Below the pieces are notes generated by a model. The model was not told the DNA's origin and ran no database searches. It saw nothing but the letters and a program-made list of their open reading frames with translations. 64,000 nucleotides of DNA, taken from contig JBJXGE010000094.1 in assembly GCA_046154185.1 (NCBI GenBank), forward strand, positions 1 to 64,000, in the 5' to 3' direction. Source of the stretch: Planctomycetota bacterium (GTDB taxonomy: Bacteria > Planctomycetota > UBA8108 > UBA1146 > JAJFFE01). The translations under genes and the position numbers were made by a program. Positions 570 through 44,507 of this stretch are shown one piece after another; position 1 is the stretch's first letter; each line of letters begins with the position of its first letter.

Positions 570-1631
570 CTAATAACTGAGATCGACTTCGTGTGCCGTC
601 TCCAAGAAGCGCGCGAGTAGGTCGACGGTCGCTTCGAGATCGGGACCGTAGATCGTCTCGACGACCGAGTGGACGTAGCGCGTCGGCACCGAGAGCGTAA
701 TCGATGGCACGGCCTCGCCGGCGCGTTGGATGCCGCCGGCGTCGGTGCCGCCCTTCGGCAAGATCTCCATTTGGTAGGGGATCTCGTGCTTCTGCGCCAA
801 CTCGCGAAAATAGCGCACGAGCTTCGGTGAAGCGATGAACGAAGAATCGAGCACCTTGATCGCCGTGCCCTTTGTCAGATGCGTGATGTGCTCCTCGGGT
901 TTTGCGCCCGGCACGTCGCACGCCAGCGTGACATCGATCGCGACGCCCATATCGGGCCGGATGCGATGCGCGGCGGTCATTGCGCCGCGCAAGCCGACTT
1001 CTTCTTGGCTGGTCGCGACCGCGTAGATGTCGACCTTGTGGTCTTTCACGCGGCGCAGGACTTCAATCAGCGTGTAAATCGAAACACGGTTGTCCATCGA
1101 CTTCGCCGAGTAGTAGTCGCCGAGCTGGATGAAGTCTTGGAGCAACGTGACGGGGTCACCCGGCTGAATCTTGTCGCGCACTTTCGCGACCGGTAACCCG
1201 ACATCGACGAACAAGTCCTCGAGCTCGGGCAGTTTCTTCTTCTCTTCGGCGTTCATGATGTGCACGGGTTTAGTGCCGATGACGCCGACGATTTCCTCAT
1301 CCTGCGAATTGATGATGCGGACGCGTTTCGCGATCAAAGTCTTGGGGTCGAAACCGCCGAGCGCGTGCACCCGCAAGAAACCGTTGTCGTCGATGTGCCG
1401 CACGACGAAGCCGATTTCATCCATATGGCCGGCGAGCATCACCTTGCGGGGCGTGCCGGTGCTACCGCTCCCACGCTTGAGCGCGATCACGTTGCCGAGT
1501 CCGTCGGTCTCAACTTTGTGAACGTGCGGAGTGATCTCTTTCTTATAAATCGCTCGGATACGATCTTCGAAGCCAGGCGCACCGGAGGCCTCGCACAGTC
1601 TCTTCAACAGCTCCCGATTTATGAGCTCCAT
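570..1631 (-). CDS. M42 family metallopeptidase (glutamyl aminopeptidase / FrvX-like)
   Basis: The 353-aa protein shows typical M42 family features (GHMDEIGF, DNR, the EE pair in SQEEVGLRGA). There is an ATG at 1631 with an AAGGA Shine-Dalgarno about 8 nt upstream. Confidence 0.85.
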   Translation of the reverse strand: MELINRELLKRLCEASGAPGFEDRIRAIYKKEITPHVHKVETDGLGNVIALKRGSGSTGTPRKVMLAGHMDEIGFVVRHIDDNGFLRVHALGGFDPKTLIAKRVRIINSQDEEIVGVIGTKPVHIMNAEEKKKLPELEDLFVDVGLPVAKVRDKIQPGDPVTLLQDFIQLGDYYSAKSMDNRVSIYTLIEVLRRVKDHKVDIYAVATSQEEVGLRGAMTAAHRIRPDMGVAIDVTLACDVPGAKPEEHITHLTKGTAIKVLDSSFIASPKLVRYFRELAQKHEIPYQMEILPKGGTDAGGIQRAGEAVPSITLSVPTRYVHSVVETIYGPDLEATVDLLARFLETAHEVDLSY

Positions 1632-1649
1632 TGCTAATCCTTTACTTTG

Positions 1650-1824
1650 GGTCCGCGCAAAAACAACTTCGCATTTTGAGGCCGATCTCTAACCTACCTC
1701 CGCTCGCGGCTCAATCGCGTAATCCTCAACGTAGCCAGGCTACGCCTGCGGTTCCGCTCAATCGCCGCGAACGGACCTACGTCAGATCTCGACCTCCAAA
1801 TGTAAAGCTTTTTTTGCGCGGACC
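1650..1824 (+). mobile_element. MITE-like palindromic repeat, copy A (175 bp, terminal inverted repeat GGTCCGCGCAAAAA...TTTTTGCGCGGACC)
   Basis: It is about 94% identical to the reverse complement of 11251-11425. Internally it is a long imperfect palindrome. Flanks are CTTTG on the left and CTTAC on the right. It lies 18 bp upstream of the M42 start codon. Confidence 0.7.
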
Positions 1825-1908
1825 CTTACCCGTGCGCTTCCAAGCCCCCCGAAGCGTGAAGCGCGCATTGTGCCAGGAGCTTTCGTCTGCGTCAGCAACT
1901 TTGTTGCG

Positions 1909-3096
1909 TCACGACTCGGTCGCTTTGAAGAGCGCTATACCGCCGAGCACGATTGCCAACGAGAGCAGTACGGTGAGCGTGATCTTGATCCAGCTATAGG
2001 GTCGCTGTCCCTGCACTTCGCCGGTCGACGCATTCACTAACAGTTGATAGAGCTTCGCGTGGAACTTGTAGCTCAAGAGCCAAACGGGTAACAGCAGTAG
2101 TTTGTAGGTGACGGCGTCATAGTGCGTTTGGATCGCATGAATGCGTTGCTCATCACCGCCGATCCGCGCGCGCACGTCGGCTCGTATCGCAGCGTCGATT
2201 TGCCCGCGCGCGCTTTTGAATCCCTGTTCGAGACTTACCTCGTAGCGCCGCGCTTGGAAGCCGGCGATGACGTCCTGTTGAAACGGTGTGCAGAGATCGA
2301 GTCGCCACGGCTCGAGCTTCTCGACCAGCTTCGGCGGCAGTCCGCCGGCCGCCGGCACCAGCACATCATCGAAGAAGCGCTGAAACTTGCCGGCCGCCGG
2401 ATACCAACGCGTGTGGCGAACGCGTCGCCGGTTTTTACCCGTGCCGACGGTCACCCAATAGTGTTCACCGCGCTCGCCGCGATACGCATTCTGCGTCAGC
2501 GAGTCGTAGGTCCAGTACGGCATGTAGCAGCCGCTGAACTTGTCGGACACGCCGAGTTTCTTGAACTTGTTGGGCGCGAACCAACGCGAACGCACCCACG
2601 CGGCGAGCTGGGTGTGCGCGGCTTCTCGCGTGATGCGAAACGGCAACACGCCGTCGATGCGTACGCGCTCTTTGAACTCCTCGGCGCTATCGATCTGAAT
2701 GGGCGAGCCGCAATAGGCGCAATCGGTGCTGGTGATGCCGCCCATGAAGACGACTTTTGCGGCGCACGACTCACAGCGGACTTCACGCGCATCCGTGACG
2801 ACACTGGTGCCGGCCCCCGGGCTTTGTGAGTCGCGTCGCGCGTCGTGCTGTTTTTGCATCCGCGCGACCATCGCGTGAAAGTCTTGCTCGGGCAGCGTTT
2901 CGACCGCGAGCGCCAGCTCCTTCGTGAAGCCACAATGCTCGCATTGGAGCTTTTGCACGCCGACGTGAAAGCGCAGATCGGAGCCGCATCCCTCGCAGGG
3001 AAAGATGCGGCCCTTGCCATCGTCGGTGGTTTCGCCGGTCGCCGGTCGAGCGGAAGGCTGCGACGACGCCGAACTTTCCGCGGCCGCGCTCATGCG
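1909..3096 (-). CDS. double zinc-ribbon membrane protein (YdjG-like), probable partner of the adjacent SPFH protein
   Basis: Two CxxC...CxxC zinc ribbons (CEGCGS..CEHCGF and CESCAA..CAYCGS) and a C-terminal TM helix. The longest ORF starts at 3285 but overlaps the SPFH gene. An internal Met at about 3096 fits a stop/start junction with the SPFH stop at 3090. Confidence 0.55.
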   Translation of the reverse strand, partial: RMSAAAESSASSQPSARPATGETTDDGKGRIFPCEGCGSDLRFHVGVQKLQCEHCGFTKELALAVETLPEQDFHAMVARMQKQHDARRDSQSPGAGTSVVTDAREVRCESCAAKVVFMGGITSTDCAYCGSPIQIDSAEEFKERVRIDGVLPFRITREAAHTQLAAWVRSRWFAPNKFKKLGVSDKFSGCYMPYWTYDSLTQNAYRGERGEHYWVTVGTGKNRRRVRHTRWYPAAGKFQRFFDDVLVPAAGGLPPKLVEKLEPWRLDLCTPFQQDVIAGFQARRYEVSLEQGFKSARGQIDAAIRADVRARIGGDEQRIHAIQTHYDAVTYKLLLLPVWLLSYKFHAKLYQLLVNASTGEVQGQRPYSWIKITLTVLLSLAIVLGGIALFKATES

Positions 3097-4202
3097 CTCG
3101 CGGCGGGCGGCGGAGGTGGCGGCGACGCGCCCGCGAGCTGCGGCACTTGTCCCGCAGGCAACCACGCCGGCATACCGTGACACCACACCATCGTCGCCGC
3201 GGTGATGCGACCGGCGGCGAAATAGCTCGCAAGTTGGGCCGGATCGATTGGACCGACGGTGCGGCCCTGCTCGGCGATGTACCACGGCTGCGCGACCGGT
3301 GGCGGCGCGGGCGGCATCATTGGCGCCGCGCCGATACCTCCCATGTTGCGCGCCATCTGTTGCGCCATCACGTACCCCATTCCAAGCCCCATGCCTTCGG
3401 CGGCGCCGCCACCGCCACCGCCCGGATTCGCCGCGGCGGCCGTCATGGCATTCGCCATTTGATACTGCTGGTATCGGCCGAGGTCGCCGATCACGCCCAT
3501 GCTGGTGCGTTTGTCGAGCGCCTTCTCGACTTCTTCCGGGAACGAGATATTCACGATCTGCAGGGCTGGAATATCGAGACCGTACTCGTCGTCGACGCGC
3601 TCGACGACGTTGCGCCGCAGCTGATCGGAAAGGTCCTTGTAGCTCGCCGCTAAATCTAGCGCCGCGATCTTGCTCGATCCAATCACTTCGGCGAACGCCG
3701 TGTTGATCATCGAACGCAAGAGCTCGCTCACTTCGTCGGCCTCAAAGACGCCGTCCGTGCCGACTAGCTCCGTCAGCAGCGCGCGCGGATCGGTCGCTTG
3801 CAACGTGTAGGTGCCGAATGCGCGCAAGCGGATCGGGCCGAAATCCGGATCGCGCAGCATCACCGGGTTCGGCGTGCCCCACTTGAGATCCGTGACTTGC
3901 CGCGTGCTGACAAAATAAACTTCGGCCTTGAACGGGCTATCGAAGCCGTACTTCCAACCCTGCAGCGTGCTGAGAATCGGCAGGTTCTTGGTCGCCAACG
4001 TGTGGGTGCCCGGGTTGAAGATGTCCGCGATCTTGCCCTCATTGACGAAAATCGCCTGTTGGCCGGGGCGAACGATGAGCTGCGCGCCCATCTTGATTTG
4101 GTTGTGGTAGCGTGGAAAACGCCACACCAATGTGTGCCGCGTGTCATCGATCCACTCAACGATGTCGACGAATTCGCCGCGTAGTTTGTCGAGGAGTCCC
4201 AT
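3090..4202 (-). CDS. SPFH/band-7 family protein (Band_7_1 / YdjI-like) with a C-terminal GYF-like (DUF4339) domain
   Basis: The N-terminus (MGLLDKLRGEFVDIVEWID..WRFP) and the ..KWGTPNP.. core match PF13421-type SPFH proteins. A Gly/Pro-rich linker follows, then a C-terminal domain (GRTVGPIDPAQLASYFAAGRITAATMVWCHGMPAWLPAGQVPQL) that looks GYF/DUF4339-like. Confidence 0.8.
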   Translation of the reverse strand: MGLLDKLRGEFVDIVEWIDDTRHTLVWRFPRYHNQIKMGAQLIVRPGQQAIFVNEGKIADIFNPGTHTLATKNLPILSTLQGWKYGFDSPFKAEVYFVSTRQVTDLKWGTPNPVMLRDPDFGPIRLRAFGTYTLQATDPRALLTELVGTDGVFEADEVSELLRSMINTAFAEVIGSSKIAALDLAASYKDLSDQLRRNVVERVDDEYGLDIPALQIVNISFPEEVEKALDKRTSMGVIGDLGRYQQYQMANAMTAAAANPGGGGGGAAEGMGLGMGYVMAQQMARNMGGIGAAPMMPPAPPPVAQPWYIAEQGRTVGPIDPAQLASYFAAGRITAATMVWCHGMPAWLPAGQVPQLAGASPPPPPPAASA

Positions 4203-10241: not shown

Positions 10242-11261
10242 CTATTCGTTTTGCGCGGCGCACTCGACAGCCAGCGCCCACAGCGCGGCGAGATCGGGTG
10301 GCAGGGGCGCGTGAAAGTCGAGAGGCGCGCCCGTTCGCGGGTGCGTGATGGAGAGTCGAGAAGCGTGGAGCGCGTGACGCGCGAGGATGGGCTCAGCCGC
10401 CGCGGGCGGTTTGCGTCCTTCGAGTTCCGCGCGGAAAAGGCGCTTCTCGCGGCCGTACAGCGTGTCGCACAGAATCGGATGCCCGAGCGCTTTCAAATGC
10501 ACGCGAATCTGATGCGTGCGACCGGTCTCGGGAAAACAATGGAACCACGCAAAGCGATCGGCTAGCACGCGCACAAGTTGCCAGCGTGTCACCGAGCGCT
10601 TGCCTTGCTCGTCGTGGCGGATCGCCATTTTCTTGCGCTGCGTCAACGACCGCGCGATCGGCAAATCGATCGTGCCGTTCGTCGCGCGGGGCACGCCATG
10701 CGCAAGCGCGAGATATTCCTTGCGCACCGTGCGCGCTTTGAACTGCGCGGCGACCGTGCGATGCGCGTGGTCATTGCGCGCGATGAGCAACACGCCCGAC
10801 GTTTCCCGATCGAGACGATGCACGATACCTGGCCGTTCTTCCCCACCCGCGCCCGAAAGGTCGTCCGTGTAGTGAAGCAACGCATTGACGATCGTGCCGC
10901 CTGCCGCGTTACCGGCTCCCGGATGCACGACCATATCGGGCGACTTGTCGATCACGATGACGTCGTCGTCTTCATAGAGCACCGCGAGCGATATCGCTTC
11001 CGCGAGCGGCGTAGCGGACGGCGGCGCGGGCAGCTCGACTACCAACTCTTGGCCGGCGCGCAGAGTGCTACTGGGCTTGAGCGCCTGCGCGTCGCACACG
11101 ATGCGACCCTCCGCGATGTAGCGCTTCAATAAGCTGCGGGAAAGTTCGGGAAAGCGCGCGTGCAGGAACACATCCAGCCGCAAACCTGCATCACCGGGCG
11201 CAATGCTGATTCGAAAGACACCCTGGGGAATATTGACTTCGACCGCTTTGGGTCCGCGCAA
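10242..11261 (-). CDS. rluD: RluA-family 23S rRNA pseudouridine synthase (RluD-like) with an N-terminal S4 domain
   Basis: HRLDRETSGVLLIA catalytic motif and an S4-like N-terminus (GLRLDVFLHARFPELSRS). The annotated TTG start at 11261 lies inside the terminal repeat of the adjacent MITE-like element. Confidence 0.85.
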   Translation of the reverse strand: MRGPKAVEVNIPQGVFRISIAPGDAGLRLDVFLHARFPELSRSLLKRYIAEGRIVCDAQALKPSSTLRAGQELVVELPAPPSATPLAEAISLAVLYEDDDVIVIDKSPDMVVHPGAGNAAGGTIVNALLHYTDDLSGAGGEERPGIVHRLDRETSGVLLIARNDHAHRTVAAQFKARTVRKEYLALAHGVPRATNGTIDLPIARSLTQRKKMAIRHDEQGKRSVTRWQLVRVLADRFAWFHCFPETGRTHQIRVHLKALGHPILCDTLYGREKRLFRAELEGRKPPAAAEPILARHALHASRLSITHPRTGAPLDFHAPLPPDLAALWALAVECAAQNE

Positions 11262-11425
11262 AAATAACTTTCCATTTGGAGGTCGAGATCTGGCGTAGGT
11301 CCGTTCTCGGCGATTGAGCGGAACCGCAGGCGTAGCCTGGCTACGTTGAGGATTACGCGATTGAGCCGGGAGCGGAGATATGTTAGAGATCGGCCTCCAA
11401 ATGCGAAGTTATTTTTGCGCGGACC
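11251..11425 (-). mobile_element. MITE-like palindromic repeat, copy B (175 bp; inverted orientation relative to copy A)
   Basis: Its reverse complement is about 94% identical to 1650-1824. Perfect CTTTG direct repeats flank it at 11246-11250 and 11426-11430. The terminal repeat supplies the putative rluD TTG start and first codons. Confidence 0.7.
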
Positions 11426-11439
11426 CTTTGGGGTCCGCC

Positions 11440-12093
11440 TCAGTTGCCACCGGTTTTTGGCGCCGCCGCTCCCTCTTCGGGTGGCGGCACGGCCGGTGGT
11501 GTCACTCCCGGTGACGGCGTCGCTTCTGGCGTCGGCTTCACTTCGCCGACCGGCGCTTCGGCGGGCTTCGCCACTTCCGGTTTCGGCGCCGGCGCTGGCA
11601 CCGTGAACGGCTGGCGCGCCGCTTGATGTTGCAGCTCGAAGTTTTTCAAGAACGGATCGTTTTTGTGTTTCGCGCGCGCATCATCGAGCAGCTGCCAAGC
11701 TTCCGCGCGAAAGCCCTCGCCGTTTTTCTCGAACAACCACGCGACATATTGTGCCACCATCGGGGGAGCGCAGTTCTCGCTCAGCAGGCGCTGTAGAACC
11801 GCGCTCGTCGCCGCGCGAACTTCGGCGTCTGTCTTTCCTTCTTGAATGCGCTTCGTGAAGGCCTCGTAGAATTCGCCGTTCAACTCGGCGACGCGAGCGC
11901 GGCTCGAACTCTCAATGAAACTCGAGATGCCGAGCACGCCGAAGATGAGCGCAACCACGACCACGATGTGCACGCTGTACTGAGTCAGCTTCTTGCGGAC
12001 AACGTCCGTGGCCTGGGCAATGCTGTCTTCGAGGTGCGCTTCTTGCGTCCCGGGGGACTGCTTGATCGGCGCCGGCTTCTGTGCCTTCGTCAT
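11440..12093 (-). CDS. membrane-anchored hypothetical protein with a Pro/Ala-rich C-terminus
   Basis: One TM helix (HIVVVVALIFGVLGISSFI), a central helical domain, and a PAPAPKPEVAKPAEAP tail. Confidence 0.5.
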   Translation of the reverse strand: MTKAQKPAPIKQSPGTQEAHLEDSIAQATDVVRKKLTQYSVHIVVVVALIFGVLGISSFIESSSRARVAELNGEFYEAFTKRIQEGKTDAEVRAATSAVLQRLLSENCAPPMVAQYVAWLFEKNGEGFRAEAWQLLDDARAKHKNDPFLKNFELQHQAARQPFTVPAPAPKPEVAKPAEAPVGEVKPTPEATPSPGVTPPAVPPPEEGAAAPKTGGN

Positions 12094-39464: not shown

Positions 39465-41018
39465 CTAGAAGCACTCGTTGAGGAGCACGGTCACGGTGCT
39501 CGGAGCCAAGAATATAAGAAACGTGGTGGTCAAGGCGTCCAGATCACCATCGCCGTCCAAATCGCCGAGCGCCACATCGATGGGTGTGGTCCCGGCCGCG
39601 TACTGCACGTGCGAAGCGAATGTCCCGTCGCCGTTGCCGAACAGGAAGCTCGCGCTGTTCGAAGAGTAGTTCGCGGTGACGGCATCGAGACTGCCATCGC
39701 CATCCACGTCGCCGAGCGCAACGGAGTGCGGAGCGTTTCCGACGGTCTGAGTGACTTGCGTCGCGAAAGTTCCGTCACCGTTGCCCGACAATAGGCTGAC
39801 GGTAGTACCCGGAGTTTCGCCCGGCATGGGGCTGTACGAGAATTCGCCGGTATTGGTCGCCAAAACATCGACATCTCCATCGCCGTCCACGTCGCCGAGA
39901 GTGGCGCTTCGAGGACGCAGGCCGACTTCGAGAATCGATTGCGCGGCGAGAGTCCCGTCACCGTTTCCGAGCAGAATGCTGACGGTGCTACCCGGGGTGT
40001 CGCCAACCGAGAACAGGCCGGTGTTGGCGGTCAATGCGTCGAGGTCGCCGTCGCCGTTCACGTCACCGAGCGTGACGGTTTGGGGATTGCTTTCGACCGC
40101 GTGCTGCACCGGCGCGGCAAAGGTGCCATCACCAAAATTAGACACTACGCTCACACTGCCGGAATCGGCGGAGATGCTGTTCGCGGCGACGACGTCGAGA
40201 TCGCCGTCGCCGTCTACGTCGCCGAGCGCCGCATAGTGACTACCGGCACCGGCATCATAAGACCCGGAAGCGGCAAACGTCCCGTCGTTGTTTCCGAGGA
40301 GCAGATTTACACTGAGAAAACCCGAATTCGCGAGCACCGCATCGAGATCGCCGTCGGCGTCGATGTCGCCGAGCTTGATAGATTGTGGGTTACCGCCGAC
40401 TTGGTAATGCACGACCGGCGCAAGCGTGCCGTCACCATCGCCCAAGAACATACTCACACCGTTGGACGGGAAACTATTCGCAGTCAGCACGTCGAGATCG
40501 CCGTCGCCGTCCACATCGCCAAGCGCCAGCGATAGAGTGAAGTTGCCTGCTCCGTAAGCCACGGGTGGCGCGAATCTGCACGGGCCCGGAGGACAACTCG
40601 CCACCGGACCTGCGCATCCGATTGCGTCGGCCGTGGGATCCTGGCCGCACGCCGGAAACGGTTCCAAGGGTGAAGTTCCCGCGCTGAAGAGATAGCTGAG
40701 TATGTAAATCGCATCGCCGATGTCGACCAGGCCGGAGTCGGCGGCGTCCATCGCATCGAGGCAGAACCCCGGACCGCCTTGGAATAGAAAGCTGAGCACG
40801 ACGATGGGGTCGTTGATCTGTATGACTCCATCGCCGTTGGCGTCGCCGCGCACAAACATCCAATTTGCGCGCGCGATCTCACCGCCGGACAACAGCAACG
40901 TTCCTGCAACGATCCAGCACAAAGCGATTGGGCGACGATTGGATTCGTTTGCTGCCGACATCTGAGTCACATCCTTCGAGTTGGAGTTGCGATCAAGAAT
41001 GGGTGCTCGGCTCTCCAC
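39465..41018 (-). CDS. secreted FG-GAP/VCBS repeat protein with an N-terminal dockerin-like module
   Basis: GDANGDGVIQINDPIVVLSFLF plus a second DxxDxGxVDIGDAIYILSYLF pair, followed by at least 7 FG-GAP-like repeats (LGDVDGDGDLD...). Confidence 0.7.
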   Translation of the reverse strand: MESRAPILDRNSNSKDVTQMSAANESNRRPIALCWIVAGTLLLSGGEIARANWMFVRGDANGDGVIQINDPIVVLSFLFQGGPGFCLDAMDAADSGLVDIGDAIYILSYLFSAGTSPLEPFPACGQDPTADAIGCAGPVASCPPGPCRFAPPVAYGAGNFTLSLALGDVDGDGDLDVLTANSFPSNGVSMFLGDGDGTLAPVVHYQVGGNPQSIKLGDIDADGDLDAVLANSGFLSVNLLLGNNDGTFAASGSYDAGAGSHYAALGDVDGDGDLDVVAANSISADSGSVSVVSNFGDGTFAAPVQHAVESNPQTVTLGDVNGDGDLDALTANTGLFSVGDTPGSTVSILLGNGDGTLAAQSILEVGLRPRSATLGDVDGDGDVDVLATNTGEFSYSPMPGETPGTTVSLLSGNGDGTFATQVTQTVGNAPHSVALGDVDGDGSLDAVTANYSSNSASFLFGNGDGTFASHVQYAAGTTPIDVALGDLDGDGDLDALTTTFLIFLAPSTVTVLLNECF

Positions 41019-42269: not shown

Positions 42270-44507
42270 TCAGTGTTCGAGCACATTACGCAAAATGCGT
42301 TGAATGTTCACGTCCGCTGGGATGCTTCCGCCAAAGGTGATCGATCCCGCCGAGAAGACGAAACCGCCGCCGGGGTGATCGTAATACGTCATGTCCGCGC
42401 CAGGTCCGCCCGATGGCAAGCCGCGCGCGAGCCAGACCAACCCGGCGGGCGGAGTCGTCGGCCCGGCGGAAAAGCTGCAGTCTGTTCCCGGACTATCAAC
42501 GCGCGTGTCGATCTCATGGCCGCTCGCTCCTCCGCTGAGCGAGCCACCGTTGGTGTTGAAGCCGGTCGCGCCGAAGGTCTGAAACAAGCCGAGGCCTGTG
42601 CCGGCGAACACGAAGTGACCCGGCTCAAGAACCTCGAACGGCATGCCGGGAGCGCTGCACCGTTGCGTCGAGATGCCCAAGATCTCGCGCTCATGACGCG
42701 GTGGCGCCAGATTGCGGAAGAGCGACGGCTCGCGCGGTCCATCCTCCACGCCGTTCAAAAACGTCATCTGAGTTCTGTCACTCGAGTAGACACCCCGCTC
42801 GAAGAGGCCATTGCCGCCGAGGTACAAGACCTTCCCGCCGCCCGCCAGAAAGTTTTCGAGTTTGTCGTACGCTCGACTCGACCAATATTCGGGGTGAGTT
42901 CCAAAAACAAGCATCTCGTACGGCGGCCTGCCGTTATGGAAGCCGTTGTGGAAATCGATATCCGTGTAGACATGAGGCTCGTATCCCTGATCCTCGAGCC
43001 ATGTGAGGATCCAAAGCTCGGCGCGCGTTTGGTGATGGGGCCCACCACCCTCCGCGACCGGCGACGTGTCGGGTGCTGGTCGCAAGAAGGAAGTCAACGC
43101 GGCCCCGTCGTATTTTCCCTTGCCGCCCCATGAATTATATGCGAGCCAGGTATTCACGCTGGCAAGTACAGCCACCTTCGATTGGGCAGTTCGGGCAGGT
43201 TTGACAATGAAGGTGATGTGGTAATCCGGTCCGCCCATCGCCGGCCGCAATGCCGCTGAGTAGATTCCGGACGGCCAACCCGCCGGGATGGTATGGGTGA
43301 AACTGGTCGACCAACCGGCGCCATTTCGCCACGGTTTTTCGTTGAGCGGCTTGCCAACTGAAGTGTGAGTGAGCGTGGCAATCAGCGTGCTGCTGACGCT
43401 CGCGCCAGTGGAACGATGGCGGTAGAGACGCACTGTCGGTAGCGCGGCTCCGGAAGTCATGAACGAAATCGTCTCGCCGGGTGCGGCGGACAGCGGCCAA
43501 GCATATCCTTCCGGCTTTTCGCCCTGGTTGCGCCCGACCCACACGGATCCATCGATCGGGTGATAGGCGAACAGATCTGGGAGGTTGTCGCTCGTGAAGT
43601 TGGTTCCGGGCGCAAACTGCCAACCCGAAGCCGGCGCGACTTGAGCGGCCTTCTCAGTGAAGTAGAAGGTCGAGACTGCGTTGCGGCCCACGAAGATCTC
43701 GCCGTTCCCAGAATAGTACGCAGCCACATCCGCGGTACCGGCGCCCGAAAATCCGCCCGGAATGATGGACCAGCCTGCAACCGGATCCAATGTAAACCAC
43801 TGGGACCATACGAACGATGTGAGCGTGTTGGCTCCGACAAAGAGGCTGCCGTCGGTCGGATGGTATGCGAAGACATCCACGACGCCGTCGCGCGTGAAAT
43901 CGCCCGGGCCGAAACTCCAGCCTGACGGAGGTGACACCGTTGCGAACAGCTGCCAGATGAACTGGTTCGATAGATTGTTGCGGCCGACCCAGACCGAACC
44001 ATCGTTGTGGTACGCGCCGACGTCGGTTCTTCCGTCCGCGGTGAAATCGCCGGTCCAAAAACTCCAACCCGACGGAGGGCTTACGCTTGCCCACTGCGAC
44101 CACACGAACGTAGAGCTACCGCTGTTCGTACCCACCCACACCGAGCCGTCGCTGGAGTGGTAGGCGAGCACATCCATGAGACCGTCGCCCGTGAACTCTC
44201 CACTCTTGATCGTCCAACCGGATGCCGGAATCAACGTCGCCCAAAGAGTGAAGGTGAACGATGCAAAGTCGGTGTTGCTGCCGACCCAGACCGAGCCATC
44301 TTGATGGTAACCGACGACATCGGTGCGCCCGTCGCCCGTGAAATCGCCGGCTTCGAAGCTCCATCCGGTAGCGGGAGTGACAGTTCCCCATTGCGTGAAG
44401 TTAATAGTCGCGTTCGCGCGGTTCGCCGCGATGACCAGAAAAGCTAGAACGTATCGAACGAGAAGCCACCGAACGGCGCGCTGCCGTTGAGTTTTTGTTC
44501 CGTTCAT
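42270..44507 (-). CDS. secreted beta-propeller (FG-GAP-like repeat) protein with a large uncharacterised C-terminal domain
   Basis: Signal peptide from MNGTKTQ. Seven repeats of W[ST]..GDFTGDGRTDV.AYH..DGSVWVG.N. The C-terminal roughly 400-aa domain is unrecognised. Confidence 0.6.
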   Translation of the reverse strand: MNGTKTQRQRAVRWLLVRYVLAFLVIAANRANATINFTQWGTVTPATGWSFEAGDFTGDGRTDVVGYHQDGSVWVGSNTDFASFTFTLWATLIPASGWTIKSGEFTGDGLMDVLAYHSSDGSVWVGTNSGSSTFVWSQWASVSPPSGWSFWTGDFTADGRTDVGAYHNDGSVWVGRNNLSNQFIWQLFATVSPPSGWSFGPGDFTRDGVVDVFAYHPTDGSLFVGANTLTSFVWSQWFTLDPVAGWSIIPGGFSGAGTADVAAYYSGNGEIFVGRNAVSTFYFTEKAAQVAPASGWQFAPGTNFTSDNLPDLFAYHPIDGSVWVGRNQGEKPEGYAWPLSAAPGETISFMTSGAALPTVRLYRHRSTGASVSSTLIATLTHTSVGKPLNEKPWRNGAGWSTSFTHTIPAGWPSGIYSAALRPAMGGPDYHITFIVKPARTAQSKVAVLASVNTWLAYNSWGGKGKYDGAALTSFLRPAPDTSPVAEGGGPHHQTRAELWILTWLEDQGYEPHVYTDIDFHNGFHNGRPPYEMLVFGTHPEYWSSRAYDKLENFLAGGGKVLYLGGNGLFERGVYSSDRTQMTFLNGVEDGPREPSLFRNLAPPRHEREILGISTQRCSAPGMPFEVLEPGHFVFAGTGLGLFQTFGATGFNTNGGSLSGGASGHEIDTRVDSPGTDCSFSAGPTTPPAGLVWLARGLPSGGPGADMTYYDHPGGGFVFSAGSITFGGSIPADVNIQRILRNVLEH

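Follow-up and report, generated by a model that had tools for sequence, protein, structure and literature searches.

A 64,000-nucleotide stretch of a Planctomycetota genome (the window) contains two nearly identical palindromes, each adjoining the 5' end of a gene, and raises the question of what these sequences are, how they came to lie there, and whether they have a product of their own. The G+C content of the window is 62.7%, and the nearest relatives of its proteins are proteins of Planctomycetota MAGs. A repeat search of the window identified the two sequences, copies A and B, as reverse complements with 177-nt arms that are 94% complementary, and a base-by-base comparison counted 10 differences over 177 bp. 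The original prediction gave the same identity and mismatch count for a length of 175 bp; the counts hold, but the length becomes 177 bp once the terminal G and C are included. The copies and their ends are as follows.

Positions 1649 to 1825, minus strand: copy A of the putative MITE, 177 bp; the minus strand folds better and has the same sense as the minus-strand genes on either side.
Positions 1649 to 1669: left terminal inverted repeat of copy A, GGGTCCGCGCAAAAACAACTT.
Positions 1805 to 1825: right terminal inverted repeat of copy A.
Positions 1646 to 1648: left target-site duplication of copy A, TTT, partner of positions 1826 to 1828.
Positions 1826 to 1828: right target-site duplication of copy A, TTA.
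Positions 11250 to 11426, plus strand: copy B of the putative MITE, 177 bp; the plus strand folds better and runs antisense to the minus-strand genes on either side.
Positions 11250 to 11270: left terminal inverted repeat of copy B, GGGTCCGCGCAAAAATAACTT, which also forms the ends of ISAzo13-type insertion sequences from Vicinamibacterales MAGs.
Positions 11406 to 11426: right terminal inverted repeat of copy B.
Positions 11247 to 11249: left target-site duplication of copy B, TTT.
Positions 11427 to 11429: right target-site duplication of copy B, TTT.

Both copies are imperfect palindromes over their entire length, as had been proposed, with Watson-Crick pairs at 62 to 63 of 88 positions. The perfect terminal inverted repeats, predicted at 14 to 15 bp, extend over 15 bases in copy A and 21 bases in copy B. 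Exact matches to the 15-mer GGGTCCGCGCAAAAA number four in the window, one at each end of each copy; a further match, with 2 mismatches, is at chance level. Searches with nhmmer and blastn returned no copies beyond A and B in the 64-kb window, and the copies of this genome visible in these 64 kb number two only. Each lies between minus-strand genes, and the two are inverted relative to each other and 9.4 kb apart, which gives them opposite orientations with respect to the surrounding transcription. The 177-bp element has no coding capacity, with stops in most frames, and its six-frame translation, which could also have revealed miscalled ORFs in other copies, had no match among 5.8 billion proteins.

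Copy A was also found at the same site, adjoining a 99%-identical M42 peptidase gene, in an independent Logan assembly (L002), so the element did not originate as an assembly artefact; the sequencing sample SRR28962011 carries copy A. The Logan contig (L002:1-80) begins mid-element, the palindrome centre being a break point for short-read assembly, and features of the element explain assembly breaks of this kind. The window contains other repeats as well. Positions 39522 to 40535 hold seven copies of a 60-nt unit at 147- to 183-nt spacing (family D1), rich in GTCGCCGTCGCC and presumably representing a repeated protein domain encoded on the minus strand, and positions 43976 to 44395 hold two 123-nt direct repeats that are 72% identical and 297 nt apart (family D2).

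A single-arm scan of the genome collection with the pattern GGTCCGCGCAAAAANANCTT detected 71 loci, compared with about 17 expected by chance. Approximately 59 of these have the preceding G, a TWA flank, and sequence likeness beyond the pattern; the remaining 12 or so, which have no preceding G, TWA flank, or common extension, look like chance matches. Most of the arm loci came from Vicinamibacterales (Acidobacteriota) MAGs, with several per genome, and in these MAGs the arm forms the left end of a roughly 1.8- to 1.9-kb element whose right end reads TTTTTGCG[T/C]CGACCC. An ISAzo13-type transposase gene was identified by tblastn beside the arm in at least 33 loci. One of these genes (L036:1104-2864) encodes 586 aa and matches PF07592, the ISAzo13-type DDE transposase, with an E value of 3.8e-117. 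The 21 terminal bases of copy B are the left ends of this element, of the one in L033, and of others. Within the 64-kb window, tblastn detected no ISAzo13-type transposase, and there is no autonomous copy in these 64 kb.

Short non-coding elements with these ends, 157 to 330 bp long, were found in five phyla or more. They occur in Acidobacteriota (L024, L066, L069, L043, and L054), a Gemmatimonadota MAG (L039), Desulfobacteraceae (L046 and L057), Verrucomicrobiales (L070), and a Planctomycetota MAG (L061). In L024, L066, and L069, the central ~60 nt are a nearly exact match to the window element, and homologous copies in other phyla are located at unrelated loci. A search for both 12-nt repeat cores 135 to 165 nt apart had no matches in the genome collection, which does not include the source genome, and the arm pattern had none in viral contigs. 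The only metagenome contig that matched the two-core pattern (L001) was rejected: it starts with a perfect long fold-back (L001:1-260) whose flanks are palindromic too, and this chance match is unrelated to the window element and probably an assembly artefact. We found no description of ISAzo13 MITEs or of this terminal sequence in the literature searched.

Other arrangements of the same ends were observed. In a Pedosphaera (Verrucomicrobiota) MAG, a 39-bp mini-palindrome (L042:7065-7103) with TTA on one flank and TTG on the other is nothing more than a pair of back-to-back terminal repeats, GGGTCCGCGCAAAATCGGAAGTGATTTTTGCGCGGACCC, and might represent either a minimal element or the remains of a deletion. 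At L046:4425-4600, two head-to-tail elements have one TTA in common (...GAACCC TTA GGGTCCGCGC...) and are followed by a run of N, an arrangement that suggests insertion beside a pre-existing end. A composite of about 298 bp in a Vicinamibacterales MAG (L016:4217-4514), with a second, internal GGGTCCGTGCAAAAACAACTTCC arm, appears to be two related short elements, nested or in tandem. At L011:7647-7740, half an element, from the left arm to the centre, adjoins the 3' end of a host gene, and the stop codon of that gene lies in the element's central region.

The family also bears on the length of the target-site duplication. With the element bounded as GGGTCC...GGACCC, the two flanking triplets match, as TTA or TAA, in 12 of the 15 complete family members. 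The flanks CTTTG/CTTTG of copy B and CTTTG/CTTAC of copy A had been read as a 5-bp duplication. They are present as described, but the 5-bp length is ruled out by comparison with the family: in L036 (GTTAG/CTTAC), L018, L033, and L063, the outer flank positions disagree, the left flank always ending in G and the right always starting with C. The outer G and C therefore belong to the element, outside the duplication, which is 3 bp with the family consensus TTA/TAA; at C-TWA-G targets the 5-bp and 3-bp readings look alike. The window departs from the family pattern in having TTT instead of TTA/TAA, with TTT/TTT around copy B and an imperfect pair, TTT/TTA (2 of 3 bases matching), around copy A. 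A duplication of 3 bp is within the range of 0 to 4 bp given by ISfinder for ISAzo13.

Copy A lies between the following two genes.

Positions 570 to 1631, minus strand: M42 peptidase gene; copy A occupies part of its 5' leader and stops 17 nt short of the ATG.
Positions 1909 to 3285, minus strand: 458-aa ORF with coding-like codon composition, on the other flank of copy A.

An AAGGA ribosome-binding site is kept between copy A and the M42 ATG. In two M42 relatives (L075 and L076), the corresponding spacers are 84 and 113 nt long and have no element. The motif GGCACAAT(N7-8)TCACGC upstream of the M42 gene is common to window positions 1850 to 1885 (minus strand) and to L075:2920-2960, from the 75%-identical relative, and may be a promoter or operator. 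It had been argued that the promoter of the M42 gene must lie inside the element. Because the motif lies upstream of the insertion, copy A is most simply part of the 5' leader, and a promoter within the element is not required.

Copy B has a more intimate relationship with its neighbor, as set out below.

Positions 10242 to 11261, minus strand: RluD/RluA-family pseudouridine synthase gene (rluD), with the putative MITE at codon 8/9.
Positions 11259 to 11261, minus strand: TTG in the terminal repeat, the annotated rluD start; it gives M-R-G-P, then K from the duplication.
Positions 11448 to 11450, minus strand: probable pre-insertion GTG start of rluD (MATEADPK...), overlapping the upstream TGA, as read from the sequence.
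Positions 11440 to 12093, minus strand: 217-aa ORF upstream of rluD, on the other flank of copy B.

When copy B and one TTT are removed, the minus strand reads GTG GCA ACT GAG GCG GAC CCC AAA GCG GTC..., which encodes MATEADPK-AVEVN..., and this restored N terminus resembles those of the RluD homologues P0130 (MGTEAPDP...) and P0129 (MGEADPP...). Today the GTG frame reaches a TAA inside the element after 13 codons, and the open frame of rluD begins only at the TTG of the distal terminal repeat. The gene thus stays open because the repeat supplies an in-frame TTG, and we infer that rluD is now translated from it. The prediction that the terminal repeat provides the rluD start agrees with NCBI protein P0121 (339 aa, 100% identical), which uses this TTG; of the five residues M-R-G-P-K attributed to the repeat, M-R-G-P do come from it, but the K comes from the duplication. 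Just past the right TTT of copy B, positions 11430 to 11439 read GGGGTCCGCC, which encodes E-A-D-P of the probable original RluD N terminus and is similar to the start of the terminal repeat (GGGTCCGCGC); this likeness may be a coincidence, target mimicry, or an old footprint.

Comparison of orthologous loci, which had been suggested as a check for empty sites, found none of the relatives examined (L078, the P0122 contig, L075, and L076) to carry the insertion. In L078, a syntenic relative, no element is present, and only 3 nt lie between rluD and the end of the homologue (E = 7e-22) of the 217-aa gene. In P0122, the closest relative (76% identity), the distance from the upstream gene to the codon before RLD is 76 nt; the equivalent spacing in the window is 256 nt, exactly 76 + 177 + 3, an indirect comparison based on distances. 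Searches for exact-protein records of the M42 protein, the 217-aa protein, and P0121 found none.

The elements had originally been described as non-autonomous MITEs, and the evidence supports that description: their ends are common to transposase-carrying insertion sequences, syntenic relatives have empty sites, and the window has no transposase. Length, lack of coding capacity, terminal repeats, target duplication, autonomous-element ends, and empty sites are all as expected of MITEs. We therefore consider it highly probable (about 0.88) that the window elements are MITEs of the ISAzo13 family, presumably mobilized in trans by an ISAzo13 transposase.

The palindrome raises the further question of whether the interior of the element has a function. 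The original prediction had considered a long stem-loop possible, and RNA folding favored this strongly: both copies were much more stable than their shuffled counterparts (z = -9.4 to -15.2, with 0 of 200 shuffles as good). The two strands do not fold equally well, an asymmetry that the original prediction had not noted. Copy A gave -109.5 kcal/mol on the minus strand versus -82.5 on the plus strand, and copy B gave -119.9 kcal/mol on the plus strand versus -88.4 on the minus strand. The relatives, given here as the homologous strand versus the other strand in kcal/mol, behaved similarly: L024, -102/-67; L066, -87/-68; L069, -114/-82; L039, -127/-78; L046, -76/-49; and L057, -77/-65. The asymmetry is 19 to 49 kcal/mol in 7 of the 8 elements. 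The better strand has 7 to 15 G.U pairs and the other 0 to 2, with the exception of L057 (7 versus 6).

These eight elements, two of which are the window copies, represent about five lineages, and their alignment yielded a consensus rod of 66 pairs, 26 of which have changes on both sides. Paired cells made up 91.7% of the alignment, versus 82.6 +/- 0.9 in shuffles and 34 to 44% when the partners were slid, and the observed covariation was reached by 0 of 500 shuffles. Read on the complementary strand, the consensus pairs are about 81% canonical. The non-window elements were chosen for having one perfect terminal arm, which biases the terminal 21 nt. In a strand-neutral self-alignment from which those positions were excluded, the ratios of G.U to A.C were 8:0, 5:1, 5:1, 3:2, 7:2, 9:0, 6:1, and 6:6; the last is L057, which has no G.U bias. 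Counted by alignment column, G.U outnumbered A.C by 21 to 10 (p = 0.07), and counted by cell, with shared ancestry ignored, by 36 to 9 (p = 7e-5). Strand-specific deamination could mimic part of this wobble bias.

Some features of the rod are conserved in detail. G.U pairs are retained in most of the eight elements at columns 34:150, 43:140, 44:139, 82:101, and 83:100, and at pair 58:120 one window copy has G-C where its counterpart has U.G, an exchange confined to the better-folding strand. Most members have two symmetric 2x2 internal loops with GA opposite GA (xAGATx in both arms), located 11 nt apart, a spacing of one helical turn. A K-turn motif was considered for these G.A loops and rejected, since they are symmetric 2x2 loops without the 3-nt bulge. 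No Rfam family matched anywhere in the window at the gathering threshold; in a permissive search (E <= 10), copy B scored 16.4 bits at best, where the gathering score is 45.

The G.U pairs and G.A loops favor one strand, which hints at selection on a single-stranded form. The asymmetry was also present with DNA energy parameters (-60.9 versus -50.3 kcal/mol), so RNA and single-stranded DNA are indistinguishable by this measure. We tentatively suggest that the rod has been selected in single-stranded form, most simply as RNA, a proposal to which we would give even odds at best. The broader proposal, that the interior is a conserved single-stranded structure (RNA, or possibly single-stranded DNA) between ISAzo13 ends in at least four phyla and no passive filler, is on balance unlikely.

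One extension of the MITE reading takes the rod RNA of the better-folding strand as the selected product, which the terminal repeats merely carry; such a mobile structured-RNA module might act as an RNase III substrate, an mRNA stabilizer, or a regulator of the ISAzo13 transposase. The strong covariation, the five conserved G.U positions, the GA/GA loops one helical turn apart, the strand advantage in 7 of 8 elements, and the one-strand variation at pair 58:120 all argue for it, as does the finding that the better-folding strand is sense to co-directional neighbors in about 6 of 7 contexts. Copy B is the exception to that orientation, lying antisense to its flanking genes, and three elements with the same ends (L054, L061, and L070) have unrelated interiors and no strand asymmetry, which suggests that the ends can move any cargo. 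Add to these the lack of an Rfam family even at E <= 10, the lack of a promoter consensus within the element, and the limited size and ascertainment of the sample, and we regard the structured-RNA extension as possible but on balance unlikely.

Less probable again is a role of the elements as portable promoter or terminator modules for adjacent genes, which the original prediction had proposed. Both copies do lie directly upstream of a gene start, and the TTGCGC in the terminal repeat is a possible outward-facing -35-like hexamer. However, scans of the 700-bp region around each copy detected no sigma-70-like promoter (-35/-10 with 16- to 18-nt spacing) and no intrinsic-terminator-like site (a G+C-rich stem followed by a U-run) on either strand, and the U-run that is present is within the stem rather than behind it. 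The 17 nt from copy A to the ATG have no -10-like hexamer, the M42 motif conserved in L075 is upstream of the insertion, and the two copies are oppositely oriented with respect to their own genes. Mobilization as single-stranded DNA by a Y1 (RAYT/TnpA) transposase, as for REPIN- or IS200/IS605-type palindromes, would explain the one-strand bias, which extends to hairpin stability under DNA parameters. We nonetheless consider it very improbable: the terminal inverted repeats of the elements are genuine and match exactly those of insertion sequences with DDE transposases, most copies are surrounded by a 3-bp duplication, and the window copies are in opposite orientations 9.4 kb apart. Elements mobilized by Y1 transposases leave no target duplication. 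The least credible alternative is a fixed, non-mobile regulatory palindrome at orthologous positions, with which the intergenic position agrees and nothing more; the sequence is absent from syntenic relatives at both loci, other phyla have homologous copies at unrelated loci, and the target duplications and the ends common to insertion sequences also speak against it.

Returning to the MITE reading, we propose that an ISAzo13-type DDE transposase acting in trans would recognize the 21-bp ends (GGGTCCGCGCAAAAATAACTT) and that each insertion would duplicate an A/T-rich target triplet, which is TTT in the window and TTA/TAA across the wider family. A/T-rich triplets cluster at gene boundaries in a genome of 63% G+C, so both copies would come to adjoin gene starts. 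Copy B would have entered rluD after its eighth codon, at an operon junction where the genes are closely packed, and copy A would have entered the M42 leader between the conserved upstream motif and the ribosome-binding site. The M42 and rluD transcripts would then carry the hairpin. The hairpin is kept by compensatory changes, and we speculate that its candidate product is an RNA co-transcribed with the host genes, with a role such as that of a processing or stability hairpin.

ISAzo13 is among the least studied insertion-sequence families, and the MITE reading would define for it a terminal repeat and a 3-bp target of the TWA type, and would add a group of non-autonomous derivatives. For annotation, the value lies in an rluD start codon that comes from a transposon end. 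The two insertions are also natural experiments: one places a hairpin of about -110 kcal/mol 17 nt upstream of the M42 start codon, and the other leaves rluD without its first eight codons, apparently restarting at a TTG that the terminal repeat provides. If the interior is indeed a conserved single-stranded structure, it would be either a mobile gene for a structured RNA or, in a mechanistically unstudied DDE family, a transposition intermediate with a structure of its own. Should the one-strand bias hold in a larger sample, the family would offer a tractable structured RNA or single-stranded DNA spread across phyla by a DDE transposon.

Among known systems, the ISAzo13 family (PF07592, "Rhodopirellula transposase DDE domain") is the closest, since its 1.8- to 1.9-kb elements have the same terminal 21 bp, and its element ends likewise begin with GG. 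Unlike those insertion sequences, the window element is 177 bp long and has no open reading frame, and its interior shows no relationship to the subterminal regions of the insertion sequences from Vicinamibacterales. REPINs are likewise intergenic palindromes of about 100 to 200 bp that form long hairpins and whose structure is maintained, but they have neither terminal inverted repeats shared with DDE elements nor a target duplication; the window element has both, and its 3-bp duplication and DDE insertion-sequence ends place it outside the REPIN/RAYT group.

The Correia/NEMIS elements of Neisseria and the ERIC elements of enterobacteria are similar in being short and non-coding, in having terminal inverted repeats and a small duplication rich in A/T, and in their insertion at gene boundaries, co-transcription, and possible long hairpins. 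Orientation-dependent RNA effects have been reported for both ERIC and NEMIS. The window element has no sequence relationship to either and has a different partner transposase family; it differs also in being palindromic over its entire length, in having relatives in several phyla, and in the tandem G.A loops and one-strand wobble bias measured here for its family. By analogy, and with no sequence in common, the window element may work in the same way as Correia/NEMIS or ERIC.
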